Part shown: positions 7,805-32,354 of the stretch, one piece after another
How the letters are laid out: each line of letters starts with the position of its first letter
How positions within the stretch are numbered: position 1 is the first letter of the stretch
Source: an uncultured Desulfosarcina sp.
GTDB taxonomy: Bacteria > Desulfobacterota > Desulfobacteria > Desulfobacterales > Desulfosarcinaceae
Length of the DNA: 64,000 bases
Assembly (NCBI GenBank): GCA_963674945.2
Contig: CAXXWQ010000002.1
Coordinates: 608,001 to 672,000 of the forward strand
Reading direction: 5' to 3'
Made by a program: the position numbers and the translations under genes
Notes under the pieces: generated by a model
Told to the model about the DNA's origin: nothing
What the model saw: only the letters and a program-made list of their open reading frames with translations
The model's database searches: none

Positions 7805-8185
7805 AAATTCCAAATCACAAAATAGAAAGAGAATTCAGGAGTCAGAAGTCAGAATCCAGGAGTTGGATTCGCCTTCGGCTCAATCGCCAAACAAAGCTGT
7901 AAATTCAGAATGTTGGGTGGAATAACCACCGGCATAAAAATTTCAAGACTTGATTGTATGGCAAAAAACTCATCAATTTGTTCTGGTTGTGCATCGCTAT
8001 AGTGAATCATTCCCTAAACATGAGATTTATGGGCTGACCTCACAATTATGAAACGAAGCGACAACATAGCCATTCTGAATTCTGACTCCTGGATTCTGGC
8101 TTCTGTAATTTTGGAATTTGGATATTGGTATTTTTCTTCTTCGAATAGCTCTTTCTAATGTTCGACGTTCGATTTTCAGCGTTCA
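7805..8185. repeat. Nested inverted-arm element enclosing a four-helix-bundle fragment
   Basis: AAATTCCAAATCAC; heptamer arm 7831-7862; P motif; cargo; CGAAGCGACAAC; reverse arm to 8105; TTTGGAATTTGG; TTCGACGTTCGA. Confidence 0.85.
7917..8048 (+). pseudogene. Four-helix-bundle gene, 5' fragment (copy 1)
   Basis: Encodes FQDLIVWQKTHQFVLVVHRYSESFPKHEIYGLTSQL, then joins directly to the S motif; homologous to 31789-32160. Confidence 0.85.
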
Positions 8186-8226
8186 TTTTGTGCTTGACGG
8201 TTGGACTTTGTCGAGCTTTTCATCCT

Positions 8227-8303
8227 TAAGCTCTAAGCTCTAAGCTCTAAGCTCTAAGCTCTAAGCTCTAAGCTCTAAGCTCTAAGCTCTAAGCTCTAAG
8301 CTC
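8227..8303 (+). repeat. Perfect tandem heptamer (TAAGCTC)11
   Basis: 77 bp counted directly. Confidence 0.97.
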
Positions 8304-8330
8304 TTGGATTCTGTATTCTGTAGTTTTACC

Positions 8331-8359
8331 ATGACATAATCTACAATTACTGTTATAAT
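8331..8359 (+). promoter_or_regulatory. Putative extended -10 sigma70 promoter
   Basis: ATGACA-17 nt-TATAAT with TGn extension, 43 bp before the ATG at 8403. Confidence 0.6.
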
Positions 8360-8402
8360 TGCAAAAATTCTTGATTAATCTAAAATCCAAATCACATACC
8401 CT

Positions 8403-11093
8403 ATGAGTCGTTTCATCGAAAAAAATTTTTGTCGGTGTTCGGTTCTGGTGTTGGAAACGATCGCTCATCTCCTGTCGATTGTCGGGCTGGGAAAATATTA
8501 CCGCTATTTCACTGCCGCGCTGATACGACAAAGCGGTCTATTTGATGATGCCTATTATCTGAAGAACAATCCCGACGTGGAGAAGGACGGATACGATCCG
8601 TTGCGGCATTATGTCGCCTATGGGGACAGGGAGAATCGTCTTCCCATGCCCCTTTTCGACCCGGCCTATTATCGTCGAAATGCCATTCAAAATCGTCCCG
8701 GTAATGTCAATACCCTGCTTCACTACAGGCTGGTGGGCCGGTTTCGGGGCATACCGACCAGTCCCTGGTTCGACACCGCCTACTATCTTTCCACGAATCG
8801 GGATGTAAAATTCAAGGGGGTAGACCCGCTCTCCCATTACCTGAAATATGGCGGGCGGGAGGGTCGGTCACCCTGCGCCACATTCGATGGCGCCAATTAT
8901 CTGCTGTCCCATCCTGATGTTGCCAGGGCGGGCGTCAATCCGCTGTTTCACCATTTGGGTTGCACCCAGGTGAAACAGGAGTCGACGTCGGAACTGCCGG
9001 TTGTGAAGATCTGTCGCGACCACAGTGGTGAACCTCCATCTGCGTTTCAGTGGAAAGTGCTCTCACCACTGAGAATCCATGGCCGACCGCTTGTCGATAT
9101 TATCGTTCCCGTTTACAAGGGGCGAACCGAGACGTTGCGCTGTATCTTCAATGTATTGCGCTTTGTTCAGAAAACCCCCTTCGCATTGGTGGTGATCAAC
9201 GATGCCAGTCCGGACCGGCGCCTTGCCGCCGAATTGGCCGATTTGTCCCGAACCCATGGATTTACCTGCATCGAAAACAAGACGAATATGGGATACGTCC
9301 GATCGGTGAACATGGGAATGAAGCTTCATCCGAAGCGGGACGTGGTATTGCTCAACGCCGATACGCAACCGTGCAACGACTGGTTGGACCGTCTTCGGAC
9401 CGCTGCCGATCGGGATCCTCGCATCGCCACGGTTACCCCGTTGTCCAACAATGCCACGATTTGCAGCTATCCGGTATTTGACAGCGACAATCCCTGTCCC
9501 ATCGAGATTTCCAGTGCCCACCTCGATCATATTGCCCGGAATGCCAATCCCGGCGTTTCCATCGAGACGCCAACGGCCGTGGGGTTCTGCATGTACATCA
9601 AGCGGGCCTGTCTGGACGACATCGGGCTCTTCGACGAATCGGCGTTTTCACGCGGATACGGGGAAGAGAACGACTTTTGTCAACGCGCCATCCGTTCCCG
9701 TTGGAAGCATGTGATCGCGACGGATGTCTTCGTCTGGCACTGGGGGGCACGATCTTTCAAGGGCCAGAAGGGGCGCCGGATCAGAAAAGCCCTCAAGATC
9801 CTGAAACGGCGATATCCCAACTACATGTCGGATGTCGCCGCATTCGTGGCCAAAGATCCCCTGCTGCCTGCCAGGCGGAGAATGGACGAGGCGCGCCTTT
9901 CCCAACAGATTGAAAAACAAAACGTTTTGGTGATTACCCACAACCGGGGCGGGGGAACACAGCGTAGCATCATCGAAAACGGCCAGCGTTTGCAAGACAA
10001 AGGCATGGGACTGTTTTTCTTAACGCCCTCGGGCGGTCGCCATCAGGCAAGGTTGTCATCCGTTCATGCCTGTCTTCTGCCGAATCTTCCACCCGTCGAC
10101 TTTCGCAAACCCAGCTCCTTTTTTTACGTTCTAAAAAGGTTTCAAATCACTCATATCCACGTTCACCAGCTGGTGGATCTGGGCGACGCCGCGCCTCGGG
10201 TCATTGCCGCCTGTGCCGATCAGGCAGGAGTACAACTGGATGTGTTTGTTCATGATTATCAGTCCATATGTCCCCGCATCAATATGGTCGATTCCACCGG
10301 TGTCTACTGTAAGAGTCCGGCGGAAAACATGTGCAATGCCTGTTTGAAGAAAAAAACGCCGGATGTGTTTTTCCGGCGGCGGGTTGATATTCTCACCTGG
10401 CGAAATGGATACGGCCGTTTGTTTGAAGCCGCTTCGGCGGTGAATGTCCCCAATGAGGATGTAAAGGACCGTTTGAATCACTGGTTTCCAACGGTACCGA
10501 TACATGTTCGGCCGCCGGAACCACCGATCCTTTTGCCTCGGACAAAATTGCACCGTTCCATTCGACCGGGAACTTCCATTCGCATCGTCGTTGTGGGGGC
10601 CATCGTGCCCATCAAAGGCTTTTATGTTCTCAAGGCCTGTGCCAAGGATGCTTTCAGGCGCCATCTTCCCATCGAATATGTCGTCATGGGGTTTACCAAG
10701 GACGACGCTTCATTGAAAAGAGTCGGCGTCACCATAACCGGCCGGTATATGGACCATGAAGGCGTACAAACCCTTCAGTCCCTGTCTCCCGATTTGGTCT
10801 GGCTGCCTTCCATATGGCCGGAAACCTATTCATACACCCTGAGCCTGGCCCTTTCCGCCGGTGCCGACATCGCCGCCTTTGATCTTGGTGCCATCCCCCG
10901 CCGATTACGGGCGGCCGGAAAAGGGGAATTTTTGCAGCCGCTGGATTGGATTCGACGGCCGTTCCGGATCAACGACGAGTTTGTAACGATCAGAAGCAGA
11001 AGGATCCGGGAAAATCTGGTCAGACTCTCCTTTTTTAATTCTTCCGGAAACGATCATGAGGCCCGCGCGTATGCCAAGGGGGTGGGGATGTGA
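8403..11093 (+). CDS. Multidomain glycosyltransferase (N-terminal FDxxYYLxxNPDV repeats, GT2, C-terminal GT-B-like)
   Basis: IIVPVY…INDAS…N.GY, LLNADT, GYGEENDF; C-terminal KG…PSIWPETYSYTLS. Confidence 0.85.
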   Translation: MSRFIEKNFCRCSVLVLETIAHLLSIVGLGKYYRYFTAALIRQSGLFDDAYYLKNNPDVEKDGYDPLRHYVAYGDRENRLPMPLFDPAYYRRNAIQNRPGNVNTLLHYRLVGRFRGIPTSPWFDTAYYLSTNRDVKFKGVDPLSHYLKYGGREGRSPCATFDGANYLLSHPDVARAGVNPLFHHLGCTQVKQESTSELPVVKICRDHSGEPPSAFQWKVLSPLRIHGRPLVDIIVPVYKGRTETLRCIFNVLRFVQKTPFALVVINDASPDRRLAAELADLSRTHGFTCIENKTNMGYVRSVNMGMKLHPKRDVVLLNADTQPCNDWLDRLRTAADRDPRIATVTPLSNNATICSYPVFDSDNPCPIEISSAHLDHIARNANPGVSIETPTAVGFCMYIKRACLDDIGLFDESAFSRGYGEENDFCQRAIRSRWKHVIATDVFVWHWGARSFKGQKGRRIRKALKILKRRYPNYMSDVAAFVAKDPLLPARRRMDEARLSQQIEKQNVLVITHNRGGGTQRSIIENGQRLQDKGMGLFFLTPSGGRHQARLSSVHACLLPNLPPVDFRKPSSFFYVLKRFQITHIHVHQLVDLGDAAPRVIAACADQAGVQLDVFVHDYQSICPRINMVDSTGVYCKSPAENMCNACLKKKTPDVFFRRRVDILTWRNGYGRLFEAASAVNVPNEDVKDRLNHWFPTVPIHVRPPEPPILLPRTKLHRSIRPGTSIRIVVVGAIVPIKGFYVLKACAKDAFRRHLPIEYVVMGFTKDDASLKRVGVTITGRYMDHEGVQTLQSLSPDLVWLPSIWPETYSYTLSLALSAGADIAAFDLGAIPRRLRAAGKGEFLQPLDWIRRPFRINDEFVTIRSRRIRENLVRLSFFNSSGNDHEARAYAKGVGM

Positions 11094-11153
11094 GTGTGGG
11101 GAACAGATGAACGTTGACCATTGAATGTTGTGATCGCAAGCATTTTGACAAGA

Positions 11154-11301
11154 GAATTCAGGAGACGAAAATCAGAATCCAGGAGTCAGAAGTCAGAATC
11201 CAGAATGTGGATTCGCCTTCGGCTCAATCGATTTAAATAACGATGGAGCGAAGCGACAACCTATCTATTCTGGCTTCTGACTCCTGGATTCTGTATTCTG
11301 G
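11154..11301. repeat. Empty heptamer-arm palindromic element
   Basis: Left arm and GGATTCGCCTTCGGCTCAATC, 12-nt spacer GATTTAAATAAC, GATGGAGCGAAGCGACAAC and reverse arm. Confidence 0.92.
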
Positions 11302-11306
11302 TTTTT

Positions 11307-12374
11307 ATGCCTCTTTCACCCCGATATCCTTCGATAACTTCGCCTTTCCGTTCCCTGCTTTCCCGATTTTTCGAAACCGTCGCCGGCGGCAAGGGCCTTC
11401 TTCGGCCGCTTTCGGGTCGTGGCGATCTAAGGCCGAAACGTGTCGTGATTCTATCACCGGGCGCAATCCCCACCACGGACATCTACCTCACGAAACGGTT
11501 CCGGGGAAATTTCGTCGATACCGTTCGAACCGTGGATACGCTGCTCCAGCGGCCGGCGGCGGTTGTTGTCGGCGAAACGCCCATCATGATCGTGGTGGTC
11601 CGATACGCTCCGTTGCCATGGCTCAGATGGGTGGCGCGACGCCAGGCGGCAGGTGACTTCGTGGTCTATTTTATGGATGACGACATGCCCATGACCACCC
11701 GTTCACCCGAACTCCCCTTCTCCTATGCCGTGAAAACCGGTTGGCGGTATGCCATGACAAAAAGATCCCTGTGCCGCCATTGCAATGAGATTTGGCTCTC
11801 AACCGCCGCGTTGGCGCGGCGATATCCCGAATCTGCGGCACGGGTCATAGAACCGGTTTTTATGGTTCCCGGAGAAACGAATACCAACGGGCCGGTCTAT
11901 TTTTACCATGGTACCAGGGCGCATCGATGGGAGATGCAATGGCTTGTACCGGTGGTAAAGGCCGTACAGCAGGAGTCTCCCCATGCGTGGTTTGAAATCA
12001 TGGGGAACCATCGGGTCCGGCGACTCTTCAAGGGGATTCCCCGGGTTCGGGTGATTCATCCCATGCCTTGGCCGGATTATCTTGAATACACCGGTTGCTG
12101 CCGTTTTCAGGTCGGTCTGGCACCGTGTATGGATACATCCTTCAACCGGGGACGCTCTCACACGAAGGTATTCGATATCACGCGCATGGGGGCTGCCGGC
12201 ATTTATTCGTCGGGGATTGTCTATGGTAATACGGTGGTTCATGGACAGACCGGCCTTCTATGCAGAAATCACCAAAAAAGATGGGTCGCGGCAATCCTTT
12301 TGTTGTTCGCGGATCCGTCGCTGCGGGATCGCCTGTATCGCGGGGCGCTGGAGTGGTGTGAGGAACGACAGTAA
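11307..12374 (+). CDS. Glycosyltransferase (GT-B/GT4-like)
   Basis: YFMDDD, VGLAP.MDT.FNRGRS.TK, G.TGLL motifs; start codon uncertain. Confidence 0.7.
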   Translation: MPLSPRYPSITSPFRSLLSRFFETVAGGKGLLRPLSGRGDLRPKRVVILSPGAIPTTDIYLTKRFRGNFVDTVRTVDTLLQRPAAVVVGETPIMIVVVRYAPLPWLRWVARRQAAGDFVVYFMDDDMPMTTRSPELPFSYAVKTGWRYAMTKRSLCRHCNEIWLSTAALARRYPESAARVIEPVFMVPGETNTNGPVYFYHGTRAHRWEMQWLVPVVKAVQQESPHAWFEIMGNHRVRRLFKGIPRVRVIHPMPWPDYLEYTGCCRFQVGLAPCMDTSFNRGRSHTKVFDITRMGAAGIYSSGIVYGNTVVHGQTGLLCRNHQKRWVAAILLLFADPSLRDRLYRGALEWCEERQ

Positions 12375-12479
12375 CAAAAAATTCCAATAAACAAATTCCA
12401 AATCACAAATAAATTCCAATGACCAAATAACAAAACAGCAGAATTCAGGAGTCAGAAGTCAGAATCCAGAAGGTGGATT

Positions 12480-12605
12480 AGTTGTATTCAAACCGGGTGC
12501 TTTGCACCCGGAATCACCCCGAACGATGAAAGCACTAACGTGCTTTTGGATATCCGGCCCATGGCCGAATATCCAAGTCACCCGCTTTGCGGGTGATCGT
12601 TGACG
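12480..12605. other. 126-bp multi-hairpin insertion inside the P motif
   Basis: Four stems: CCGGGTGC/GCACCCGG, AAAGCAC/GTGCTTT, TTGGATAT…ATATCCAA, TCACCCGC/GCGGGTGA; second copy at 23463-23588. Confidence 0.75.
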
Positions 12606-12653
12606 CGCCTTTGGCTCAATCATAAATAAAGAGCTGGAAATCCAGAATGTAGA

Positions 12654-13017
12654 ATGAAACGAGCACCGGCAAAAATTTTCAGGACTTGATTGTATGGCAA
12701 AAAGCGCATCAATTTGTTTTGGCTGTGTATCGCTATAGTGAATCATTCCCTAAGAATGAGATTTATGGGCTGACTTCACAATTGAGAAGATCCGCTGTTT
12801 CAATTCCAGCGAACATCGCAGAAGGATTCAAGAAAAAGACCAGGCCAGACAAGGCAAGGTTTTTAAATATAGCACAGGGCTCCCTTGAAGAGACACGGTA
12901 CTATCTATTTTGGCAGCAGATCTCGGTTATGGTGAAAATGTTGAATTGGCAAACCAACTTCGGGAGATCAGTAAATTGCTGGAAGGTTACCTTTCTTCCA
13001 TTTTGCATTCTGTATAG
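12654..13017 (+). pseudogene. Four-helix-bundle gene with two 1-bp deletions (copy 2)
   Basis: A5 instead of A6 near codon 7 and a missing C in TATCT(C)ATT versus the intact copy; EIYGLTSQLRRSAVSIPANIAEG and GSLEE retained. Confidence 0.88.
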
Positions 13018-13060
13018 AGGCAACGGTAATATTCAAATTGAAGGAGCGAAGCGACACCTT

Positions 13061-13249
13061 CTCCTGGCTCCTGGCTCCTGGCTCCTGGCTCCTGGCTCCT
13101 GGCTCCTGGCTCCTGGCTCCTGGCTCCTGGCTCCTGGCTCCTGGCTCCTGGCTCCTGGCTCCTGGCTCCTGGCTCCTGGCTCCTGGCTCCTGGCTCCTGG
13201 CTCCTGGCTCCTGGCTCCTGGCTCCTGGCTCCTGGCTCCTGGCTCCTGG
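13061..13249 (+). repeat. Perfect tandem heptamer (CTCCTGG)27
   Basis: 189 bp counted directly. Confidence 0.97.
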
Positions 13250-13319
13250 ATTCTGACTCCTGGATTCTGAATTCTACAGTTTTGTGGTTAAAAAAAGTTA
13301 CCTGAAAACACAATCAATC

Positions 13320-15401
13320 ATGGAAAATAATAACAGTCCCACTCCCATCATCGGCACCTTTTCACGGGGGCTTGTTACTAGACGGCACCTCGGCGCCGCA
13401 TTGGGCGGCCGGGTCCTGCGATTGGGAAGGCATAACGACGGTACTGCCCTGTCTGCCGTTGTTGGCTGGGGACGAAAGGACAACACGAATCGGGCAAGGA
13501 GTTTCGCAGCCAACGCCGGTTTGCCGTACATCTGTATCGAAGACGGGTTTATTCGATCCATCGGCCTGGGTGTGAACAATGCACAGCCATTCGGCTTCAT
13601 CGTCGATACATCCGCCATCTACTACGATGCGACCCGGCCATCGGACCTGGAAATCCTCATTCAAAGCAACGGCGAGGGGGGGGGGGACCTTGATCGCGCA
13701 CGCAGGCTCATGGCCCGCATCGTGAAGGAACAGATCTACAAGTACAACCACGTCTGGGACAGCGTTCGTCTGCCACAGACCCGTCGACCACGAATCCTCC
13801 TCATTGACCAGACCCGGGGTGACCTCTCCGTCACGTATGGGATGGCCGGCGCCGACAGCTTCCGGCAAATGCTGGATTCTGCCAGAAAGCGATATCCGGA
13901 TGGCGCCTTTTTCGTCAAGACGCATCCGGACGTCATTGCGGGAAAGAAAAAGGGGTATCTGCTCGATGACCTGCCGGCCGATGTCATGCGAATCGGAGAT
14001 GACTGTAACCCCTACGCCCTGCTCCATCAGGTTGACCACGTCTATACGGTGTCCAGCCAGATGGGATTCGAAGCGCTCCTGGCGGGAAAACCGGTGACAT
14101 GTTTCGGAATGCCCTTCTACGCCGGATGGGGGGTGACGGAGGATCGGGTTCACTGTGCGCGCAGGGGCGTCACCCGTTCCATGGAAGCGCTTTTTGACGC
14201 CGCCTATCTGAAGTACGTTCGATACGTGGATCCGTTGACAGGGGATCCTTGCGAGCTGGAGCAGATTCTCGACAGAATCGTTTTTCACAAACAGGTGGCA
14301 CTGGAAAACAAAGGCAAGGTGTTTTGTTTCGGGTTTCGTTTCTGGAAAAGGGGGATCATCAACCGGTTTCTGGATGCATCCGATGCCGATGTCCGGTTTA
14401 CGAGGCGTCCGGAGACGGCCGAACGGACAGGACTCGATGGCGAGAGTCGCATCGCCGTCTGGGGCCTTCGCAATGATACCGGTGTCATGAAACTGGCCAC
14501 GCGCCATGGGATTCGGGTGGAGCGGATCGAGGACGGGTTTATCCGATCCGTCGGTTTGGGATCCGATTTCGCTCCTCCCTCGTCCCTTATCGTGGATCGT
14601 CGGGGCATCTATTTCGATCCCCGTCGTCCCAGCGAGTTGGAGAACCTTCTCAACACGGTGGTCCTCGATGGAAACGCCAGAAAAGCGGCCCGTCGATTGC
14701 GGCGATCCATCATTGCATTGGGGATGAGCAAATACAACACGGGCTGCAATGAACCGCTGCACGTGGACGCGCAACCGGACCAACCGGTCGTCCTCGTTCC
14801 CGGGCAGGTGGAAGACGATGCCTCCATCCAGGCGGGCTGCGTGGATATTCGGACCAACATCGGCCTCCTCAAAGCGGTCCGCCGCCAATCTCCCGATGCA
14901 TACATCATTTACAAACCCCATCCCGATGTCCTGGCGGGCAATCGTCGCGGGTTCATTCCCAAGGATCGTGCGCTTTCCCATTGTGACAGAATTGTGACAG
15001 ACCGGAATATCATCCAATGTCTGGATCGTGTTGACCAGGTCCATACCCTGACCTCCCTGACGGGGTTCGAGGCGCTGTTACGGGATAAGGCCGTTTTCAC
15101 TTACGGGCGTCCCTTCTATTCCGGATGGGGGCTCACCGTTGACCGTCATCCCTCACCGCGCCGCACACGTAGTTTGACCATAGATGAACTGGTTTATTGC
15201 AGTCTGATTCTTTATCCGCGCTACTACGATTGGGATGCCCGCTGTTTCGTTCAGGCGGAGGATGTCGTCGAAAAACTTCGCAAACAACTGCTCAGCCGCG
15301 ACCTTTCCATCAAACCATCCGTGCACCGGCATCTTCGCCGCAAGGCCCTGTTTCTTATGGAGGATCTGCGCGAGGCAATGGGGACGATACGGATCAAATG
15401 A
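13320..15401 (+). CDS. kpsC: Capsule beta-Kdo transferase KpsC
   Basis: Two homologous halves, each with EDGFIRS.GLG, YYD/YFD…PS.LE, KYN, K.HPD, S..GFEALL, PFY.GWG. Confidence 0.93.
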   Translation: MENNNSPTPIIGTFSRGLVTRRHLGAALGGRVLRLGRHNDGTALSAVVGWGRKDNTNRARSFAANAGLPYICIEDGFIRSIGLGVNNAQPFGFIVDTSAIYYDATRPSDLEILIQSNGEGGGDLDRARRLMARIVKEQIYKYNHVWDSVRLPQTRRPRILLIDQTRGDLSVTYGMAGADSFRQMLDSARKRYPDGAFFVKTHPDVIAGKKKGYLLDDLPADVMRIGDDCNPYALLHQVDHVYTVSSQMGFEALLAGKPVTCFGMPFYAGWGVTEDRVHCARRGVTRSMEALFDAAYLKYVRYVDPLTGDPCELEQILDRIVFHKQVALENKGKVFCFGFRFWKRGIINRFLDASDADVRFTRRPETAERTGLDGESRIAVWGLRNDTGVMKLATRHGIRVERIEDGFIRSVGLGSDFAPPSSLIVDRRGIYFDPRRPSELENLLNTVVLDGNARKAARRLRRSIIALGMSKYNTGCNEPLHVDAQPDQPVVLVPGQVEDDASIQAGCVDIRTNIGLLKAVRRQSPDAYIIYKPHPDVLAGNRRGFIPKDRALSHCDRIVTDRNIIQCLDRVDQVHTLTSLTGFEALLRDKAVFTYGRPFYSGWGLTVDRHPSPRRTRSLTIDELVYCSLILYPRYYDWDARCFVQAEDVVEKLRKQLLSRDLSIKPSVHRHLRRKALFLMEDLREAMGTIRIK

Positions 15402-15406
15402 TATAT

Positions 15407-15622
15407 AAATCTCAAATCACAAGCAACAAATAGCAAACAAACGCCAAATTTCAATGACCAAACAACAAACGGATCACATAACTAAATATGAAATTTTCAT
15501 CTTACCGATCGGGTTGTTTGGAATTTGAAAAATTGTTTATTGGGATTTGTTTGTGATTTGGAATTTGGTTATTGTGATTTCTTTATAGCGGAGCGCAGCG
15601 ACAGCATAGCCATCCTGGCTCC
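15407..15622. repeat. A-rich/T-rich inverted arm pair plus S motif
   Basis: AAATCTCAAATCACAA…CAAACAACAAAC (15407-15470) versus GTTGTTTGGAATTTG…TTGTGATTTC (15513-15581); GGAGCGCAGCGACAGC follows. Confidence 0.75.
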
Positions 15623-19466: not shown

Positions 19467-19838
19467 CAGAATACAGGAGTCAGGAGTCAGAATCCAGAAG
19501 TTGGATTTGCCTTCGGCTCAATCATAAAAATGAGTTGGGGATCCATACGTTAGAATGAAACGACCACCGGCAAAAAATTTTCAAGACTTGATTGTGTGGC
19601 AAAAAGCGCATCAATTTGTTTTGGCTGTGTATCGCTATGGTAAAAATGTTGAATTGACAAATCAACTCCAGGATGTCAGCAAATTTTTGGAAGGTGACCT
19701 TTCTTCCATTTTGCAAACAGAAAATAGGTAATGCTAATATTTATATTAATAGATGGAGCGAAGCGACAACATCGCCATTCTGACTCCTGACTCCTGACTT
19801 CTGGATTCTGAATTCTGTATTTTTGTGATTTGGAATTT
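19467..19838. repeat. Filled heptamer-arm element (copy 3)
   Basis: Left arm, P motif, shortened four-helix-bundle gene, S motif, reverse arm, TTGTGATTTGGAATTT. Confidence 0.9.
19555..19731 (+). pseudogene. Four-helix-bundle gene with in-frame 195-bp internal deletion (copy 3, 58 aa)
   Basis: MKRPPAKNFQDLIVWQKAHQFVLAVYRY|GKNVELTNQLQDVSKFLEGDLSSILQTENR; junction at shared GCTAT. Confidence 0.88.
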
Positions 19839-20894: not shown

Positions 20895-21174
20895 CTACAA
20901 CTCCCAATGGCTAAATTCCAAACCATGAATGAAAAGAATTCAGGAGTCAGGAGTCAGAATCCAGAAGTCGGATCCGCCTTCGGCGCATCCGAAAAAAGGT
21001 AACCAAAGAGGACACAAAAGAGTACAGAGAACGAATCAAATTGTAGTTCTCTGTGTACTCTACTGCTCTCTGTAGTGAATAACGCATTGCCTGAAAAGGC
21101 AGGTGTCTTTACATTAGAAAGAGCGAAGCGATAACAACGCCATTCTGACTACTGACTCCTGGATTCTGGCTTCT
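20866..21174. repeat. Nested element with hairpin cargo
   Basis: AACATTGAACGTCCTACATCGAAC arm; heptamer arm from 20936; P variant; AGAGTACAGAGAAC/GTTCTCTGTGTACTCT hairpin; S variant; reverse arm. Confidence 0.85.
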
Positions 21175-22154: not shown

Positions 22155-22212
22155 GAATTCAGTAGTCAGGAGTCAGAATCCAGAATGTGGATTTGCCTTC
22201 GGCTCATTCGAT
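22155..22212 (+). repeat. Solo left arm (heptamers and P motif)
   Basis: GAATTCAGTAGTCAGGAGTCAGAATCCAGAATGTGGATTTGCCTTCGGCTCATTCG. Confidence 0.8.
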
Positions 22213-23359: not shown

Positions 23360-23636
23360 GGTGGCAGAATCAGAAGGTCGAACAATTAAATACAAATTCC
23401 AATATCCAAATAACAAAACAGCAGAATTCAGGAGTCAGAAGTCAGAATCCAGAAGGTGGATTAGTTGTATTCAAACCGGGTGCTTTGCACCCGGAATCAC
23501 CCCGAACGATGAAAGCACTAACGTGCTTTTGGATATCCGGCCCATGGCCGAATATCCAAGTCACCCGCTTTGCGGGTGATCGTTGACGCTCCTTTGGCTC
23601 AATCATAAATAAAGAGCTGGAAATCCAGAATGTAGA

Positions 23637-24001
23637 ATGAAACGAGCACCGGCAAAAATTTTCAGGACTTGATTGTTTGGCAAAAAGCGCATCGATTCGT
23701 ATTAGGTATGTATTGCTATACTGAATCATTTCCTAAAAGTGAGATTTATGGTTTGACATCACAATTGAGAAGATCATCCGTATCCATTCCAGCTAATATT
23801 GCAGAAGGCTTTAAAAAAAAGACGGTGCCTGATAAGGCAAAGTTTATGAACATAGCGCAAGGTTCTCTTGAAGAGACACGGTACTATCTCATTTTGGCGG
23901 CGGATCTTGGTTATGGTGAAAATGTTGAATTGACGAAGCAACTTCGGGAGGTCAGTAAATTGTTGGAAGGTTACCTTTCTTCTATTTTGCATTCTGTATA
24001 G
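23637..24001 (+). pseudogene. Four-helix-bundle gene (copy 4); 5' frameshift, 110-aa body intact from TTG 23669
   Basis: Same A5 tract as copy 2; VWQKAH, EIYGLTSQLRRSSVSIPANIAEG, AQGSLEETRYYLILAADLGY. Confidence 0.8.
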
Positions 24002-24044
24002 AGGCAACGGTAATATTCAAATTGAAGGAGCGAAGCGACACCTT

Positions 24045-24324
24045 CTCCTGGCTCCTGGCTCCTGGCTCCTGGCTCCTGGCTCCTGGCTCCTGGCTCCTGG
24101 CTCCTGGCTCCTGGCTCCTGGCTCCTGGCTCCTGGCTCCTGGCTCCTGGCTCCTGGCTCCTGGCTCCTGGCTCCTGGCTCCTGGCTCCTGGCTCCTGGCT
24201 CCTGGCTCCTGGCTCCTGGCTCCTGGCTCCTGGCTCCTGGCTCCTGGCTCCTGGCTCCTGGCTCCTGGCTCCTGGCTCCTGGCTCCTGGCTCCTGGCTCC
24301 TGGCTCCTGGCTCCTGGCTCCTGG
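24045..24324 (+). repeat. Perfect tandem heptamer (CTCCTGG)40
   Basis: 280 bp counted directly. Confidence 0.97.
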
Positions 24325-24384
24325 CTCCTCTCGTTTGTCTTTCTTGTAGTGGAAAACCATTACTCGACAAGGTAAGGTTCAACT

Positions 24385-25548
24385 ATGCAAAAAAACAGCA
24401 AGATCTACGTCGCCGGCCACAGGGGGCTCGTGGGATCGGCACTCATGCGAACGCTTCAAGCGCAGGGATATGGTAATATCGTCACCCGCACCCATGCCGA
24501 ACTGGATTTATGCGATCAAGCCGCCGTTCGAGATTTTTTCCAACAGGAGCAACCGGAATATGTCTTCCTTGCCGCGGCCAAGGTCGGCGGCATCTGGGCG
24601 AACAACACCTTTCCGGCGGAATTCCTCTATCAGAATATCAGCATCCAGAGCAATGTCATCCATTTTGCGAAACAAACCGGAGTTCGTCGTCTCCTGTTTC
24701 TCGGCTCCTCCTGCATTTACCCCCGCGATTGTCCCCAGCCGATGAAGGAGTCGTACCTGTTGACCGGACCGCTGGAATCAACCAATCGGCCCTATGCGGT
24801 GGCGAAGATCGCCGGTATCGAGATGTGCTGGTCGTACAATCGGCAATATGGAACGAAATACCTGGCCGTGATGCCGACAAACCTTTACGGTCCCAACGAT
24901 AGCTATGATCTGACAAATTCCCATGTGCTGCCCGCATTGATACGAAAGATTCACCTGGCGAAGCTGGCGAAAAATGGGGATCTGGAGGGGATTCGACAAG
25001 ACAGGGACCGAAGAGGGGATATACCCGTAGACGTGTTGCAAACCATCGGCGTTTCCGAAGATCTCTCGGCTTCCATCTCCGATGATGTGAAACTCGTCGT
25101 GTGGGGCACCGGATCTCCAAAGAGAGAGTTTTTGTACAGCGACGATATGGCCAGGGCGAGCCTGTTTCTGATGTCCCTTCCCGACAAGGAATTTGACAAT
25201 CTGGTAAGGGCCGAAGCGCTTCCGCTGATCAACATCGGGTGTGGCTATGATCTGACGATCAGAAAACTGGCTGAAACGATCCAGGACGTGCTCGGTTTTT
25301 CCGGGGAAATCATCTGGGACAAGAACAAGCCGGATGGTACGCCCCAAAAGCTATTGGATGTCGGCAACCTCTTTTCCCTGGGATGGAAACCAACCGTAAA
25401 TCTCGAAGCGGGCATCGCGGCGGCGTATGAGGATTACCTGAACGAAAGAATTCAGGAGCCGGAAGTCGGAATCCGGAAATCGCGGGTTTTATCGCCACAG
25501 ACACACACAGACGCACACAGACGAAATAGAGCCGATTCCAATTTTTAG
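24385..25548 (+). CDS. fcl: GDP-L-fucose synthase with repeat-derived C-terminal tail
   Basis: AGHRGLVGSA, AAAKVGGI, LGSSCIYP, MPTNLYGP.D, SHVLPAL, WGTG.P.REF, KPDGTP. Confidence 0.95.
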   Translation: MQKNSKIYVAGHRGLVGSALMRTLQAQGYGNIVTRTHAELDLCDQAAVRDFFQQEQPEYVFLAAAKVGGIWANNTFPAEFLYQNISIQSNVIHFAKQTGVRRLLFLGSSCIYPRDCPQPMKESYLLTGPLESTNRPYAVAKIAGIEMCWSYNRQYGTKYLAVMPTNLYGPNDSYDLTNSHVLPALIRKIHLAKLAKNGDLEGIRQDRDRRGDIPVDVLQTIGVSEDLSASISDDVKLVVWGTGSPKREFLYSDDMARASLFLMSLPDKEFDNLVRAEALPLINIGCGYDLTIRKLAETIQDVLGFSGEIIWDKNKPDGTPQKLLDVGNLFSLGWKPTVNLEAGIAAAYEDYLNERIQEPEVGIRKSRVLSPQTHTDAHRRNRADSNF

Positions 25549-25604
25549 CTCATTACACATCACTCATTACTGATCACTGATTTTTCCTCCGCGTCTCAGC
25601 GTGC
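25492..25604 (+). repeat. 113-bp direct repeat, copy A
   Basis: TCGCCACAGACACACACAGACGCACACAGACG…GCGTCTCAGCGTGC, identical to 26375-26487. Confidence 0.95.
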
Positions 25605-25729
25605 TCGAGCAAAGCGGGCGAGAAAAAGATCAGCGAAGCGACAACTTCGCCATTCTGACTCCTGGCTTCTGCAGTTGCAGTTCTCTGTGGTGAATAACGA
25701 ATTACCTGAAAAGGCAGGAACAATTAAAC

Positions 25730-25763: not shown

Positions 25764-25789
25764 AAAATAAACATGCATGCGGGTGCAAT

Positions 25790-26071
25790 ATGCAAAGAAT
25801 AAAAATTGATCAGGATATTAAGCCCTTGTCGGAAGTTAGGACCGGAATTGCAAACTTCATAAAACAAGTTCATGATACAAAACGCCCATTGGTCATTACA
25901 CAGCATGGAAAAGGCGTGGCCGTGCTAATCGATGTTCATGAATATGAAGCGATCCAAAATCGGCTTGAGCTTTTGACAGATATCCAGTTAGGGCTGAACC
26001 AGATTGAAAACGGACAAGGAATCGATCAAGAAAATGCAAAGCAGATGGTTATCCAGCGAGCCTTACAATGA
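25790..26071 (+). CDS. Phd/YefM family antitoxin
   Basis: RPLVITQHGKGVAVLI..EYE motif; 93 aa; overlaps the toxin start. Confidence 0.9.
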   Translation: MQRIKIDQDIKPLSEVRTGIANFIKQVHDTKRPLVITQHGKGVAVLIDVHEYEAIQNRLELLTDIQLGLNQIENGQGIDQENAKQMVIQRALQ

Positions 26072-26364
26072 AAATTGTATGGTCTCCTCTTGCGATAGAG
26101 CGGACTTCAGAAATCGCGGGTTTTATTGCCAGAGACAAACCATCCGCTGCAGAAGAATGGATCGATACCGTTTTTCTGAAGGTCGAACAGCTATTGGACT
26201 CACCTGAGATCGGTAGGATTGTGCCCGAAATAAACAACAAGCAGTTTCGAGAGATAATTTATGGTAACTATCGAATTATTTATCGTGTCGAAATAAAGCG
26301 GATTTCAATTCTTACGATCCAACATGGGAACCAGATATTACCAATAAAGGAAATCTTGACATAA
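26068..26364 (+). CDS. RelE/ParE family toxin
   Basis: MKIVWS..A, P..GRIVPE, REIIYGNYRIIY. Confidence 0.9.
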   Translation: MKIVWSPLAIERTSEIAGFIARDKPSAAEEWIDTVFLKVEQLLDSPEIGRIVPEINNKQFREIIYGNYRIIYRVEIKRISILTIQHGNQILPIKEILT

Positions 26365-26374
26365 CAACATCTTT

Positions 26375-26487
26375 TCGCCACAGACACACACAGACGCACA
26401 CAGACGAAATAGAGCCGATTCCAATTTTTAGCTCATTACACATCACTCATTACTGATCACTGATTTTTCCTCCGCGTCTCAGCGTGC
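26375..26487 (+). repeat. 113-bp direct repeat, copy B
   Basis: Identical to 25492-25604. Confidence 0.95.
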
Positions 26488-26549
26488 AAAATTATATCAT
26501 AATTGTAATTATGCATTGCATTGTTACAAATTCATTGTATGATAGCACC

Positions 26550-27731
26550 ATGAAAACCAAATTCGTACCACGATTGCTTCGGATCCCCAATTATTCTTTT
26601 TTTCTTTTTGGTCCACGCGGTGTAGGGAAAACAACGGTTTTACGTAAGGTTTTGCCTGATGCCATTTTTTTTGATTTGCTTGAATCTTCATTGTATCTTG
26701 AATTATCACAAAATCCCGAAAACATAGAGGCCCTTATCGGAGATGCCGATAAGGGCGACTGGATCGTCATTGATGAAATTCAAAAAGTTCCTACCCTTTT
26801 GGATGAGGTTCACCGTTTAATTGAAAATAGAGACTGGAATTTTGCCCTATGCGGGTCATCAGCCAGAAAACTTCGGCAAGGTGGTGTGAATCTTTTGGCA
26901 GGTCGTGCCGTTACTCGAAACCTTGACGCATTTTCATTCAAGGAATTGGGCGACGACTTTGACTTAGATTTTTCTTTGGAATGGGGTCTCCTTCCAATAG
27001 TCCAGACCCATCGAAGGAATCCTTCTGATTTTTTAAGCGCTTACGTAGATACCTATCTTAAGGAGGAAATCAAAGAAGAGGGGATTGTTCGCCGTTTACC
27101 GCCCTTTTTACGATTTTTAAATATTGCCGGACAACTTAATGGTCAAATAGTAAATGCACAAAATATTGCCAGAGAGGCAAGCATACCCAGGAGTACGGTT
27201 GATGTTTATTTTTCCATTTTAGAAGATACGCTGCTGGGACACTTTCTGCCGGCCTATCGACCGGGTTTAAAAGTGCGAGAGCAGGCGCATCCAAAATTTT
27301 TTTGGTTCGATTCCGGGGTTTCTAGAGCGGCCTCAGGCCTTCTATTTGATCCGGTAGACCGCATTTGGAAAGGATCAAGCCTGGAGACACTGATTCTGCA
27401 CGAACTGAAAGTATACAACCATACGCAAGAAAAACATCGGGACATTTATTATTACAGAACAGGCAGTGGTGTTGAAATTGATTTTATAATTGAAACGCAA
27501 AAACGTCAGCAAACAAACCACCCACATGTGGTATGCATGGAAGTCAAACTGGCGGAAAAATGGGATCGACGGTGGGAGAAACCGATGCGTTCATTCAATG
27601 AAAATAAAAAAATTCACGTAGAACGGATGATTGGTGTTTATACGGGGTCCAGAAGTTATCATTTTGATGGCATAGATGTCCTGCCGGTTGATGCTTTCCT
27701 GAAGCAACTGCATTCAGGTAAAGTGTTTTAG
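26550..27731 (+). CDS. AAA+ ATPase with DUF4143-type C-terminal domain
   Basis: GPRGVGKT, IDEIQK, GSSARKL, LAGRA, KFFWFD.G, EIDFI…EVK. Confidence 0.9.
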   Translation: MKTKFVPRLLRIPNYSFFLFGPRGVGKTTVLRKVLPDAIFFDLLESSLYLELSQNPENIEALIGDADKGDWIVIDEIQKVPTLLDEVHRLIENRDWNFALCGSSARKLRQGGVNLLAGRAVTRNLDAFSFKELGDDFDLDFSLEWGLLPIVQTHRRNPSDFLSAYVDTYLKEEIKEEGIVRRLPPFLRFLNIAGQLNGQIVNAQNIAREASIPRSTVDVYFSILEDTLLGHFLPAYRPGLKVREQAHPKFFWFDSGVSRAASGLLFDPVDRIWKGSSLETLILHELKVYNHTQEKHRDIYYYRTGSGVEIDFIIETQKRQQTNHPHVVCMEVKLAEKWDRRWEKPMRSFNENKKIHVERMIGVYTGSRSYHFDGIDVLPVDAFLKQLHSGKVF

Positions 27732-27744
27732 TTTGGTTCCTTAT

Positions 27745-28107
27745 TCGACGTTCAATGTTGGGCGTTCGATGTTCGACGTTCATTCTTTGTTGGCTCCCTG
27801 TTCCCTGCTCCGAGATTTTTCCTATTTAGTGGTTGAAATCACACCCCCATCCAAGATATAGTGCCTGCATTCTAATGTAATCTGAGTGTTTCCCATGTTG
27901 CATTCGTTTAAATGTGTTGCAAAAATAATGAGTTATTTAAATACTATCCGTCCAATTCCATATTCCCGGAAATCACTTTTCTTAAGGCATAGATCCTTGT
28001 TTGCATTTTGACTATTGGGATTTGGAATTTATTTGTAATTTGGTGCTTGTGATTTGGAATTTTATTTATCGATTTGTTCCTAATTCGATGTTGAATGTTC
28101 GACGTTT
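27745..28107. repeat. Cluster of reverse (T-rich) arms
   Basis: TTCGACGTTCAATGTTGGGCGTTCGATGTTCGACGTT (7-mer period); TTGGGATTTGGAATTT…GTGATTTGGAATTT; TTCGATGTTGAATGTTCGACGTT. Confidence 0.75.
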
Positions 28108-28165
28108 ATTGGTAATTGGCGCCTGTTTTCTGACATCTTATAACTATTTTTTGAGATCTAAATTC

Positions 28166-31147
28166 ATGACTGAAAAACAACCCATCGATTGTCTGTTGAT
28201 TACGGGAATGCACCGAAGCGGTATGTCGGTGTTGTTGGAATGCCTCGATCTTCTCGGCGTGAGTATCGGGAAAAGCAAATCAGGCAAATATTCCGGCAAT
28301 GGCGCACAGACGACTGCCACGAATGAGATCACAACCACACACGACGTCCTGCTCAGAGATCTGGGGTGCAAGTGGGACATGGTCGGGGCCTTGCCCGGAG
28401 ATTGGATGGAGACCCGGGCGGCCAAGAACGCCAGGGAACGTGTCCGAAACATTATCAAGAACAATTTTTCCAAAAATGGACTCTGGGCCGTTGCCGATCC
28501 GCGATTGAGCCGGCTCATGCCCCTATGGCAGTCCGTGCTGCAAGAGATGAATTTGACCCCGGGATTCTTGTTGACCATACGCCACCCCTGGGAAGTCGCG
28601 CAATCATTGAAGAAGAACTGCCGGATGGATATCGGGCATGGCCATCTGCTTTGGCTGGCGCTAAACAAGGAAGCCTTTGATCTGTGCCAATCAAGCCCGT
28701 ACACGGTCACCACATATGACCAGCTGCTTGCAGATCCTTCGGCCATCTTAAACGATATCGCATCCCAGTTCGGTCTGTCCTTTCCGAATCCTCTGCAGAA
28801 ACAGATCTATCAGATATTGGATGTTGTCAGGCCGGAACACAAGCATCACCATCTGAGCGGATTTGACCGATCCGGTGACGATTGGGCATCATTTTCTCCT
28901 TTTTCATGGCTTTATGAACAGATTTCAAGCCATCGATCCGCCTTGAAGCTGCTTGTCCATGAAACCCCTGAGGATGTCGATGCAGATGCCATCACACGTG
29001 AAGCCATGCCGGCCCGTTTGTACCCGACGCCTCTTCCGATTGTCAGCCAGAACGCCGCAGTTCAAAAAGAGTCCAATCAGCAGGGCAACCGTTTATTCTA
29101 CCATTTCCTGCACCTGATCGGACAATATGAGCGTGAGCAACGGGACCTGGAGCTGAAAAAGATGCACCGGATCTTGCGCAGCACACGTGTTGAAGAGACC
29201 CTCTTTGCCAGACTCTGCATCCCATCCGAAGATGAGAACGCAAATGGTTTGAAGACAAGCGCCGAATCCCTTCTGCTAAAAAATGAATGGCAAAAGGTTC
29301 GTTTTTCCATTCCGAAACCAGAGCTGTTGCAAGCATCCAATCTCGAATTTGCTCCCATTAACACAAGGGGCGTCGTTTCCATATCAAAGATGACTCTGAT
29401 CAATGTTGCCACGGATGCGGAATACTGGAACGCATCCACCGAGGAAGGCTTCCAGTCAATCAAATTGAAGGACGCCATTCGGCTGCCCGGAAATGGTGCC
29501 TTCCAGGTAATGACCACAGGTGATAACGCAATACTCTCTTTGCCGGAGTTGCCTGATCTGCCGGATTGTCCGATTGCCTTTCAGGCATGGATAAAGGTGG
29601 ACACCAGCCAGAACATCGTCAACACCGCATGGCAAACCCTCCTGAATGAAAAGGATCAATTGGCAGCCAAGTTGGAAGGAGCCATGGCTGACCAACAGGC
29701 GATTGCAGCGAGGTTGAAAGAAAAAGAGCGTGAACTGGTGGCGGTATCGGAAAATAACGAAGCGAGCCGGTCTGCCTTGAAAAAGGAACGCGATACCCAT
29801 AAAGCCAAATCTGATCAACTTTCCAATGAACTGGAGAAAGTTCGACATGACCTCGATGCGCGAAATGCGGAAAACATTAAAATTCAACAAACTCTGGAAG
29901 AGCAAAGAAAAAAGGTACAATCTTTACAAGACGCATTATCCGAAAAAAACGGGACCAACGAGGCTTTATCCAAAAAGGTTGTAGAAATGGAGGAAGCTAA
30001 AAAAGCCTACACGCAAGCCCTTCGGGAGCGGGAATCGGAGAACGATAGTTACTGGCAGGCGCAAAGACGCCATGTAAAAGAAGTCGCCCTTCTTGAGAAG
30101 AAGGTCGGAGAGTTGGAGCGTGCTCTCGGTGCAGCCAAGGAAAATGTGGGTACTCGATTCAAGGAGCTTTCCATCATTACCCATTTATTGAAGGAACGAG
30201 AAGATGATGTAAACCAAAAAGAGGTCCAGTTGACTTCGCTGAAGAGGCAATTGGACCAGTCTTCCGACGAATTGGCGGCAAAAAACAGGCAACTCAACCA
30301 GTCTTCCGACGAATTGGCGGCAAAAGACAGGCAACTCGATTCATCCAGGGATCAGATCAAACATTTACAGCAGAATTTGGCCGGAATGTCCGCTTCGCTG
30401 AAAACCGCCAATGAGGAAAAGAAACTGCTGCACCGTAAACTTGTGCAACGGGACAAATCCATTCAAGCAAAAGATATCGTGATCGATCTGCAGCGCAAAC
30501 AGATGGAAAAGATCAAGGACTCGGCAACGTGGAAGGTAATGGCACCAGTCCGCGGATTGTCACGTCCCTTTAAAAAGTCCTCTCGAAGAATGGAACCAAT
30601 CGATGAGCAGATCGAGCAGATCCGGCAGTCGGACCTGTTCGATGCGAATTGGTATTTGGAGCAATATCCCGATGTGGCGGAGCATGGTTTGGATCCGGCG
30701 GAACACTATTTTCACTTCGGTGTATCCGAAGGAAGAGATCCCGGACCGGATTTTGATACGATCTGGTACATGAAGACATATCCGGATGTATCGGAAACGG
30801 GATTTAATCCTCTGGTGCATTACGTGAAATATGGAAAGGAAGAGGGGCGGCGTCCCAATGCGGGCAAACCCTTTGATGAACAAATAGGATTGGTAAAACA
30901 GTCTGAATTGTTCGATGCTTCCTGGTATCTGGAGCGATACCCAGATGTGGCAAGTCATAAATTGGATCCGGTGGAACACTATTTTTATTTTGGCGCTTCC
31001 GAAGGCAGGAATCCCGGACCGAATTTTAACACAGCCTGGTATGTGAAAACCTATCCGGACGTATCGGAGGCGGGGATGAATCCGTTGGTGCACTACTTGA
31101 CATTTGGGGAAAAGGAAGGGCGGAAGATTCAGCCGAACCAAAAATAA
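28166..31147 (+). CDS. Sulfotransferase-like domain, long coiled coil and C-terminal FDxxWYLxxYPDV repeats
   Basis: GMHRSGMS, DPRL, RHPWEVAQSL, YDQLL; heptad-rich middle with a 42-bp duplication near 30255-30338; duplicated C-terminal block. Confidence 0.75.
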   Translation: MTEKQPIDCLLITGMHRSGMSVLLECLDLLGVSIGKSKSGKYSGNGAQTTATNEITTTHDVLLRDLGCKWDMVGALPGDWMETRAAKNARERVRNIIKNNFSKNGLWAVADPRLSRLMPLWQSVLQEMNLTPGFLLTIRHPWEVAQSLKKNCRMDIGHGHLLWLALNKEAFDLCQSSPYTVTTYDQLLADPSAILNDIASQFGLSFPNPLQKQIYQILDVVRPEHKHHHLSGFDRSGDDWASFSPFSWLYEQISSHRSALKLLVHETPEDVDADAITREAMPARLYPTPLPIVSQNAAVQKESNQQGNRLFYHFLHLIGQYEREQRDLELKKMHRILRSTRVEETLFARLCIPSEDENANGLKTSAESLLLKNEWQKVRFSIPKPELLQASNLEFAPINTRGVVSISKMTLINVATDAEYWNASTEEGFQSIKLKDAIRLPGNGAFQVMTTGDNAILSLPELPDLPDCPIAFQAWIKVDTSQNIVNTAWQTLLNEKDQLAAKLEGAMADQQAIAARLKEKERELVAVSENNEASRSALKKERDTHKAKSDQLSNELEKVRHDLDARNAENIKIQQTLEEQRKKVQSLQDALSEKNGTNEALSKKVVEMEEAKKAYTQALRERESENDSYWQAQRRHVKEVALLEKKVGELERALGAAKENVGTRFKELSIITHLLKEREDDVNQKEVQLTSLKRQLDQSSDELAAKNRQLNQSSDELAAKDRQLDSSRDQIKHLQQNLAGMSASLKTANEEKKLLHRKLVQRDKSIQAKDIVIDLQRKQMEKIKDSATWKVMAPVRGLSRPFKKSSRRMEPIDEQIEQIRQSDLFDANWYLEQYPDVAEHGLDPAEHYFHFGVSEGRDPGPDFDTIWYMKTYPDVSETGFNPLVHYVKYGKEEGRRPNAGKPFDEQIGLVKQSELFDASWYLERYPDVASHKLDPVEHYFYFGASEGRNPGPNFNTAWYVKTYPDVSEAGMNPLVHYLTFGEKEGRKIQPNQK

Positions 31148-31171
31148 ATGACACAGAGAGCATAGAGAAAG

Positions 31172-31630
31172 ATGACTTCCAAATACGAAAATGAAATAAA
31201 AAAAATCGAAGAATCCGGCCTGTTTGACCCCGTTTGGTATCAAGCCGAATACCCCGATACACAATTTCTCAACATGACCCCCATCGAACACTATTTATGG
31301 CTGGGTGCAACATTGGGGCGCAATCCCTCTCCGAAATTCGATGTCGCCTTTTATTTAAAATCCTATCCGGAGGCAGCCAATTCCGGCATTAATCCATTGC
31401 TCTATTTCATTGAAAAGGGAAGGGCAGCAGGACACGAAACGGTTTCACCTGATGAAAAAGAAGAGAAAGAGTCGACTTATAAATCAGTTGATCTCCTTAT
31501 TGAGGAAGAAGAATTAAGGGAAGAAAATGAATTATTATTGCTCCAACTTCATCAGGTCCAGGAGGAACTGGAAACCTATTATCTGAAGTATCAGGAGCTG
31601 AAGAATCGTGTGGAAGAGAAGGAAGGGTGA
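31172..31630 (+). CDS. Small FDxxWY-repeat protein with coiled-coil tail
   Basis: SGLFDPVWY..EYPD, GRNPSPKFD..FYL..YP, ENELLLLQLHQVQEELE. Confidence 0.75.
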   Translation: MTSKYENEIKKIEESGLFDPVWYQAEYPDTQFLNMTPIEHYLWLGATLGRNPSPKFDVAFYLKSYPEAANSGINPLLYFIEKGRAAGHETVSPDEKEEKESTYKSVDLLIEEEELREENELLLLQLHQVQEELETYYLKYQELKNRVEEKEG

Positions 31631-31637
31631 AGAAAGA

Positions 31638-32354
31638 GAACGTCGAACATCGAACGTCCAACATCGAATATCGGATGATGTGGGTGCAAGCATACTGGGA
31701 GAGAATCCAGGAGTCAGGAGTCAGAATTCAGAATGTGGATTCACCTTCGGCTCAATCATAAAAATGAGTTGGGGATCCATACGTTAGAGTGAAACGACCA
31801 CCGGCAAAAAATTTTCAAGACTTGATTGTGTGGCAAAAAGCGCATCAATTTGTTTTGGCTGTGTATCGCTATAGTGAATCGTTCCCTAAGAATGAGATTT
31901 ATGGGTTGACCTCACAATTGAGAAGATCCGCTGTTTCAATCCCAGCGGACATTACAGAAGGCTTCAAGAAAAAGACGAAGCCTGACAAGGCAAGGTTTTT
32001 AAACATAGCACAAGGTTCGCTTGAAGAGACACGATACTATCTCATTTTAGCAGCAGATCTCGGCTATGGTAAAAATGTTGAATTGACAAACCAACTCCAG
32101 GAGGTCAGCAAATTGTTGGAAGGTTATCTTTCTTCCATTTTGCAAACAGAAAATAGGTAATGCTAATATTTATATTAGTAGATGGAGCGAAGCGACAACC
32201 TATCCATTCTGAATTCTGACTCCTGGATTCTGAATTCTGTTGTTTTGTAATTTGAGATTTGTTTGTAATTTGGTGCTTTTGTTTTGGAATTTAATCGGGA
32301 GCAAAGCGACAACCGCTCCATTCTGAATTCTGACTCCTGACTACTGAATTCTGA
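31638..32354. repeat. Filled heptamer-arm element (copy 5) around the intact four-helix-bundle gene
   Basis: AACGTCG/AACATCG arm; perfect 21-bp inverted repeat 31715-31735 / 32205-32225; P and S motifs; extra S and arm 32297-32354. Confidence 0.92.
31789..32160 (+). CDS. Four-helix-bundle protein (23S rRNA IVS protein / TIGR02436-type family)
   Basis: FQDLIVWQKA, FPKNEIYGLTSQLRRSAVSIP..I.EG, FLNIAQGSLEE, DLGY; 123 aa, GTG start. Confidence 0.9.
   Translation: MKRPPAKNFQDLIVWQKAHQFVLAVYRYSESFPKNEIYGLTSQLRRSAVSIPADITEGFKKKTKPDKARFLNIAQGSLEETRYYLILAADLGYGKNVELTNQLQEVSKLLEGYLSSILQTENR

Follow-up and report, generated by a model that had tools for sequence, protein, structure and literature searches.

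What is the unit, a four-helix-bundle gene or its relic between inverted arrays of 7-base repeats, that recurs in the gaps of a capsule locus from an uncultured Desulfosarcina sp., and how did it come to lie there? The stretch of DNA analysed here (the window, 64,000 nt) contains a group-2-type capsule locus (kpsM/T/E/D-like genes, kpsS, gmd, fcl, and glycosyltransferases) around the units. The original prediction described left and right heptamer arms, two internal motifs (P and S), and five enclosed gene or relic copies; all of these are found where it placed them (Table 1). The 21-bp inverted repeat of copy 5 (31715-31735/32205-32225) is indeed perfect, and all five copies lie on the + strand, as does the kps operon, in agreement with the predicted co-orientation. 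Over the whole window, the gaps hold CAG(G/A)A(G/A/T)(T/C)-type heptamers in ten left and twelve right arms, and eight of the ten left arms contain exactly five repeat units. Five arm-gene-arm units in the kps locus enclose TIGR02436 sequence, and one of these genes is intact.

Table 1. Units, partial units, and the intact gene in the window
Feature	Position	Strand	Description
Unit 1	7829..8105	+	left arm 7829-7863 (5 units), P 7865-7885, truncated relic from 7917, S 8047-8065, right arm 8071-8105 (5 units)
Gene-less compact unit, arm-P-S-arm	11173..11300	+	one long predicted hairpin
Unit 2	12439..13276	+	left arm 12439-12473, nested small hairpins, P-like 12601-12621, frameshifted gene 12654-13017, S 13040-13058, right arm 31 units
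Unit 3	19467..19817	+	arm, P, relic 19555-19731 with 195-nt in-frame deletion, S, right arm 6 units
Gene-less unit	20934..21168	+	encloses a second, 9-mer-like hairpin resembling (by eye) those flanking GxxExxY genes
Half unit, left arm and P	22160..22209	+	
Unit 4	23422..24330	+	near-duplicate of unit 2; gene 23637-24001 frameshifted after codon 6, leaving a 110-aa ORF from 23669; right arm 41 units
Degenerate gene-less unit	25446..25671	+	
Unit 5	31701..32239	+	left arm 31701-31735 (5 units), P 31737-31757, S 32181-32199, right arm 32205-32239 (5 units)
Four-helix-bundle gene, 123 aa	31789..32160	+	TIGR02436 118 bits, PF05635 125 bits
Extra S and right arm (5 units)	32295..32353	+	

Copy 5 is the sole full ORF of the five. 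Its product has two substitutions, N54D and A56T, in columns that are otherwise almost invariant, and its scores lie far above the curated cut-offs of 24 bits (TIGR02436) and 33.8 bits (PF05635). Copy 1 is truncated, with a stop at codon 3; copy 2 has two frameshifts; and copies 3 and 4 carry the deletion and the frameshift listed in Table 1. Within the capsule locus, the unit may have multiplied locally and now be decaying. The duplicated, near-identical units at 12401-13060 and 23384-24044 are 98-100% identical in their flanks and 75-82% identical in their gene interiors, which suggests gene conversion or replacement of the cargo in units 2 and 4. Other heptamer families occupy the same gaps (8227-8318, 12376-12435, 15407-15583, 27743-28063, and 31638-31676) as TAAGCTC x11, CCAAAT-type, and GAACGTC-type inverted pairs; these are probably the arms of lost cassettes. 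The window also contains a Phd/ParE toxin-antitoxin pair (25790-26364) between two copies (near 25495 and 26377) of a ~100-bp repeat that itself holds further periodic repeats. Two ORFs for coiled-coil proteins are internally repetitive: an 894-aa ORF at 32431 has seven 189-bp coding repeats (33277-34710), and a 1048-aa ORF at 28001 has a 273-bp repeat (30626-31123). An Rfam scan of the window gives no match, no + strand promoter match lies within unit 5, and no syntenic flank for a filled/empty comparison of the window copies is present among 25 relatives.

The architecture extends well beyond this locus. Two sets of relatives were compared: a close set, the best 80 of 502 close relatives (66-86% identical, with at least 12 phylum-level labels), and a diverse set (loci L081-L235), taken from part of the matches listed in family searches of three phyla and from five further genomes. 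Full-length, de-duplicated genes with 160-nt flanks (n=195) were scored as armed at an inverted repeat score of at least 26, and 134 ORFs from the same loci served as controls. By this measure, inverted arms flank 155 of the 195 TIGR02436/PF05635 genes (64/78 close, 91/117 diverse; 40 lie below the threshold) and 2 of the 134 controls, as expected from the proposal that such homologues are associated with arms elsewhere. The proposed covariation of left and right arms is likewise borne out: 1.9% of swapped arm pairs attain the score, and for 73 genes their own right arm is the best-scoring among 117. In most arms the best lag is 7. A reverse search used inverted TAACTGA arms alone, at a spacing (365-395 nt) picked to fit the gene, TAACTGA being one arm type of the class. 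A family gene is enclosed in 36 of the 109 distinct metagenome matches listed, compared with 1/134 flanks, and the other 73 listed enclose no four-helix-bundle gene. The family itself is present in 38/61, 20/41, and 26/33 of the sampled genomes of three phyla. Thus, the arm-gene-arm architecture is real and general across many phyla.

Two features that the original prediction treated as characteristic are not general. Nearly all of the close relatives have the heptamer of the window, without P or S. Motifs P and S are missing from 193 of the 195 loci and present in two; they therefore lie outside the general element and have been dropped as core parts. A link to capsule genes has also been discarded as a general rule, since sugar-pathway neighbours occur at only 8/49 and 2/45 scanned loci elsewhere, although in the Desulfosarcina genome most copies, by our reading, lie within polysaccharide loci. 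Both P/S and the capsule link are local extras of the Desulfosarcina locus.

A heptamer can be derived for all but 41 of the 195 loci, and 88 scorable diverse loci contain 82 distinct units. Units match (with at most one mismatch) in 7 of 11 cross-genome pairs of proteins at least 60% identical, in 41 of 2155 pairs below 50% identity, and in none of 29 same-genome pairs below 60%. Judged by pairwise identity (the protein tree is a quick tree of few columns), the heptamer tracks protein similarity, not host. However, the 33 full-length proteins among the matches listed in the reverse search form six clusters, and with the heptamer TCAGTTA shared by six protein clusters, heptamers and proteins do not correspond one to one, which counts against the explanation favoured below.

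Arm length has a mode at five units in both sets (55/128 and 56/136 arms). The estimator recovers simulated lengths, and a unit-free measure peaks at 4-5, not sharply at 5. A mode of five fits one heptamer per subunit of a ring, but the 30-35 bp of such an arm could simply be an optimum of stem length. These properties bear on a passive origin, in which slippage would make the arrays, template switching would mirror them, and the gene would survive in the hairpin without binding it. Such a process could account for the right-arm expansions of 31 units (unit 2) and 41 units (unit 4) and for the sharing of one heptamer by six protein clusters. It could also account for the modest mirroring of the arms in register (1.3 versus 1.5 mismatches per unit, p 0.002-0.003). 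It is nevertheless very improbable, given that control genes in the same loci lack arms, that the heptamer stays with the protein across phyla, and that arm length has a mode, not a decaying distribution.

Can the arms be understood as an RNA stem? A long stem closing the gene is predicted in 46 of 50 folded loci. In the minimum free energy fold of copy 5, a single stem formed by the arms alone encloses the gene (z = -7.3), and P and S do not pair with each other; P-S pairing is predicted in gene-less compact units. The arms differ at ~1.3 of 7 bases, and G-U pairs are not in excess when compared with A-C among these mismatches (68 vs 58 and 103 vs 97). The lack of a G-U excess, together with the modest in-register mirroring, argues against a purely RNA-stem role. 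It is extremely improbable that the unit is an mRNA intron, whose stem would be cut and whose flanks would be re-joined, restoring the original junction. The predicted stems would suit an intron, and a gene for RNase III is present. However, besides the absence of G-U bias, excision of rRNA intervening sequences (IVSs) is not known to be followed by re-ligation. Passages of PMC4990558 describe a Coxiella IVS with heptamer repeats that is cut by RNase III, which favours an intron, and report three fragments from its processing, which does not. Of four sequencing runs mapped to one cysH-sbcD locus (L056), the three RNA runs contain only the joined form, with other SNPs and with the gene uncovered; the same joined form is present as DNA in two relatives (L257/L259), and the RNA runs thus derive from the empty allele.

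The structure of the protein suggests what the arms may be for. The model of the copy 5 product (pLDDT 95) is closest to Xcc0516 (Z 19.7, rmsd 1.3, 110 aligned), followed by BT_0352 (Z 15.1) and Avd (Z 13.9-14.2). Xcc0516, a homopentamer according to the portion of PMC4990558 that treats it, has five chains in its structure. A four-copy model of the cassette protein (contact agreement 82%, pLDDT 83) gives a self-association score of 0.63 versus 0.19 for the best control, a value that possibly reflects memory of the solved structure 2GSC; the mark for self-association is reached by 20/30 solved pairs and 1/23 single chains. The protein is therefore predicted, by homology to Xcc0516 and Avd, to form a ring that would be a pentamer, and this ring likely binds its own arms. 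The majority of conserved residues, however, fall in the predicted oligomer interface, a point against the favoured explanation.

Dozens of operon junctions with no relation to one another hold cassettes, among them hom-ask, cas4-cas1, argB-argG, and mutase subunits. Both flanking genes are co-oriented with the cassette in 148 of 188 cases (by a crude ORF call), and the median distance from the end of the right arm to the next ATG is 14 nt. The 85 + 94 neighbours scanned include one transposase (ISL3) and no reverse transcriptase (RT), and cas genes occur at several loci. Cassettes lie inside cas operons (cas4-cas1, after cas1, cas6-cas4) at L007, L031, L046, L101, L117, and L181.

Filled and empty alleles were compared at three junctions, with two unpublished genomes left out. 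At the mutase junction, an exact ATGA stop-start overlap is kept in 17 of 25 loci; five others are filled, with (T)ATG at both ends of the cassette, and three contain other hairpins. The (T)ATG duplication is seen at this one junction, and selection alone could enforce it. The filled alleles fall on four host branches. In another genome, a REP-like palindrome occupies the same ATGA mutase junction (L284), a shared insertion hot spot. The cysH-sbcD junction is syntenic in 23 of 25 loci: the cassette is present in four, a short RBS-like gap takes its place in two near-identical relatives, and ~13 contain remnants of other heptamers (by eye). Of 28 loci compared at a kinase-regulator junction, 8 are filled, by cassettes that belong to about three heptamer families. 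Genes at the same site differ by dN of 0.02-0.24 versus dS from 0.35 to saturation; the cassette protein is under purifying selection. Gene divergence at the mutase site roughly parallels the host tree, and the empty cysH-sbcD alleles nest among filled ones; thus, a cassette that stays for long periods and is precisely lost time after time would explain these patterns as well as repeated insertion does.

That purifying selection is strong at fixed sites even where dS is saturated would also be expected if the unit served its host, with the ring protein and its heptamer sites tuning operon processing or translation and the unit spreading by helping the host. The short distance from right arm to start codon and the more than 100 gene-less sites in the Desulfosarcina genome point the same way, and such a protein was proposed for TAACTGA repeats in a section of MacGregor 2015 (PMC4679880). 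Yet the neighbours have no functional theme, four of the five window copies are broken, at one junction the occupant changes from one heptamer and protein family to another, and cassettes are missing from close relatives. A host-serving regulator is therefore unlikely.

Those gene-less sites emerge from the genome scan that the original prediction called for: the arm-P-S-arm unit is a dispersed repeat in its own genome, with 139 nhmmer matches, 106 of them long. Forty-eight are compact gene-less copies, mostly antisense (20) or convergent (15) to their neighbours, with 9 sense, 1 divergent, and 3 inside ORFs. Their extra flanks decay gradually, and sharp ends were not found in these copies. 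Period-7 arrays number 199 in this genome versus 7-37 at lags 5, 8, 10, and 11, and chance is therefore excluded. By inspection, each of the other four-helix-bundle genes of the genome has its own distinct inverted array (GCTGATA, GTTCAGG, GGCTGTA, or GTTCCCG, plus an 8-9-mer type on an insertion-split gene). One four-helix-bundle gene (G000:C2:360373-362378) is split by an inserted ORF of ~450 aa on the opposite strand.

Taken as a whole, the cassette is very probably a mobile or homing unit. As to how it moves, we lean, with somewhat better than even confidence, towards a promoterless selfish element of ~450 bp. It would be expressed by read-through transcription, and this need may be why intact copies are sense-oriented. 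In the transcript the arms are predicted to pair, looping the cassette out; this looping, together with a site between stop and start codon or within an rRNA loop, would explain why cassettes are tolerated. A pentameric ring would engage the five heptamers of each arm, keeping both ends together, and insertion or homing would take place at the DNA level, catalysed by a host or trans-acting enzyme. Loss of the gene would leave heptamer hairpins that spread as dispersed repeats.

Against this explanation counts the fact that no mobilising enzyme is found in cis. The original prediction of a cassette lacking its own transposase stands, in that the only ORF inside unit 5 encodes the four-helix bundle; no transposase or RT was found to travel with the unit, the single ISL3 gene being the one transposase among the 179 scanned neighbours, and a profile search gives no nuclease family match in it. 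Could an RT act in trans instead? An Avd-like ring would then bind the cassette RNA and recruit the enzyme, and the cDNA would integrate at empty junctions. This would accommodate the Avd fold (PF22296 E 2e-5, below the cut-off), the sense orientation, the insertions in rRNA, and the (T)ATG found exactly duplicated at a single site. However, no RT is adjacent, gene-less units are mostly antisense or convergent, and two single-contig genomes with 5 and 9 family matches yield no RVT_1. RVT_1 is found in 15/37 gene-positive versus 6/23 gene-negative genomes, an unconvincing co-occurrence that was set aside. Retro-homing is consequently quite unlikely. Phage as a vector was rejected, as viral contigs and 50,697 phage records contain no relative; 39 plasmid records, mostly cyanobacterial, contain one.

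A second family has a similar layout. GxxExxY (PF13366) genes lie within inverted arms, mostly of period 8-10, at 15 of 23 loci (swapped pairs, 6.7%), and they occur in 18/38 genomes with the four-helix-bundle gene versus 2/23 without (Fisher p 0.002, the kin not being independent). GxxExxY genes flanked by inverted 8-10-mer arrays are seen at G000:C2:376509-376850 and L456-L484, and a second polysaccharide cluster (C2 ~353-392 kb) has many gene-less arms of this type in its gaps. A broader proposal, plausible but tentative, is that the cassettes are a widespread, unrecognised mobile class. In it, a pentameric Avd-like ring would read five heptamers at each cassette end, insert exactly at stop-start junctions and rRNA loops, and seed genomic heptamer repeats, with the GxxExxY genes, which belong to a nuclease family, as a sister class and possible catalytic partner.

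These observations offer a testable role for a large unexplained protein family, and connect three separate puzzles: rRNA IVSs that carry an ORF, the surplus of heptamer repeats between genes, and reports of the family beside cas genes or diversity-generating retroelements (DGRs) (portions of PMC3936711, PMC10910872, and PMC10053308). That reported neighbourhood may represent insertions rather than functional partnership. The cassettes are likely to be a source of long-unexplained 7-base repeats in bacterial genomes, whose transfer is said in a passage of PMC4679880 to have "no mechanism". Should the sequence of the ring determine which heptamer it prefers, the family would be a natural collection of small proteins that bind repeats; exact insertion at start codons with no transposase, if it occurs, would represent a new route of mobility. 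In open-access PMC and bioRxiv texts, no description of arms around TIGR02436/PF05635 genes was found beyond the heptamers upstream of the Coxiella IVS ORF.

How does the cassette compare with known systems? It has terminal inverted repeats, as insertion sequences (ISs) and MITEs do, but encodes no transposase. REPtrons/TIRtrons and REP/MITE systems, as treated in parts of PMC3733652, also combine a gene flanked by palindromic repeats with many dispersed gene-less copies. They carry an HUH tyrosine transposase, which the enclosed gene here does not encode, and the arms here are periodic 7-mers that differ per protein lineage. The Y1_Tnp-like gene of the window (60655-61626) scores under the cut-off and lacks adjacent arms, and so does not form a REPtron or TIRtron; it belongs to a region (59768-61629) in which a MntA/HepT toxin-antitoxin pair is followed by this weak Y1/RAYT-like transposase gene, without heptamer arms. 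The intergenic heptamers TAACTGA (PMC4679880) and GGGAATC (PMC4692102) are described in sections of those papers as 7-mer arrays just upstream of starts with a patchy phylogeny, as here, and part of the latter paper, on Xanthomonas, reports inverted pairs like the cassette arms. The terms "helix bundle" and "S23" occur in neither main text. A triple GGGAATC repeat gives 0 viral matches and is present in 0/39 and 1/401 genomes, the groups sampled being apparently not the intended ones.

Homing-endonuclease elements resemble the cassette in their patchy filled and empty alleles at fixed sites, purifying selection, and decay, the stages of a homing cycle, but the unit here has no nuclease domain. 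IVP ORFs share rRNA insertion sites with such elements, according to a portion of 10.1101/2024.02.27.582315. Avd of DGRs shares the fold and, by homology, the ring oligomer, but it is only 13% identical. The cassette protein falls below the Avd cut-offs (NF033474, 26.3 vs 80; PF22296, 25.3 vs 40), no RT adjoins the cassettes among the window ORFs or the scanned neighbours, and the RVT_1 matches of the genome lie on other contigs than the window. Thus, the cassette is no member of the IS, REPtron, or DGR classes or, by location, of the IVSs. rRNA IVSs (Coxiella, Leptospira; PF05635 23S_rRNA_IVP) hold the same protein family within a terminal stem, like that predicted here, and a passage of PMC4990558 places heptamer repeats upstream of the Coxiella ORF. 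IVSs lie in rRNA, whereas the window copies lie in the kps operon and most copies examined occupy mRNA gene junctions. However, the link to IVSs suggested by the original prediction finds support in a 23S rRNA gene with a heptamer-armed copy inside it (L121) and in three TAACTGA-armed metagenome copies with the same rRNA-like flanks (judged by flanking sequence). The ORF-bearing rRNA IVS looks like a special case of the heptamer-armed class.
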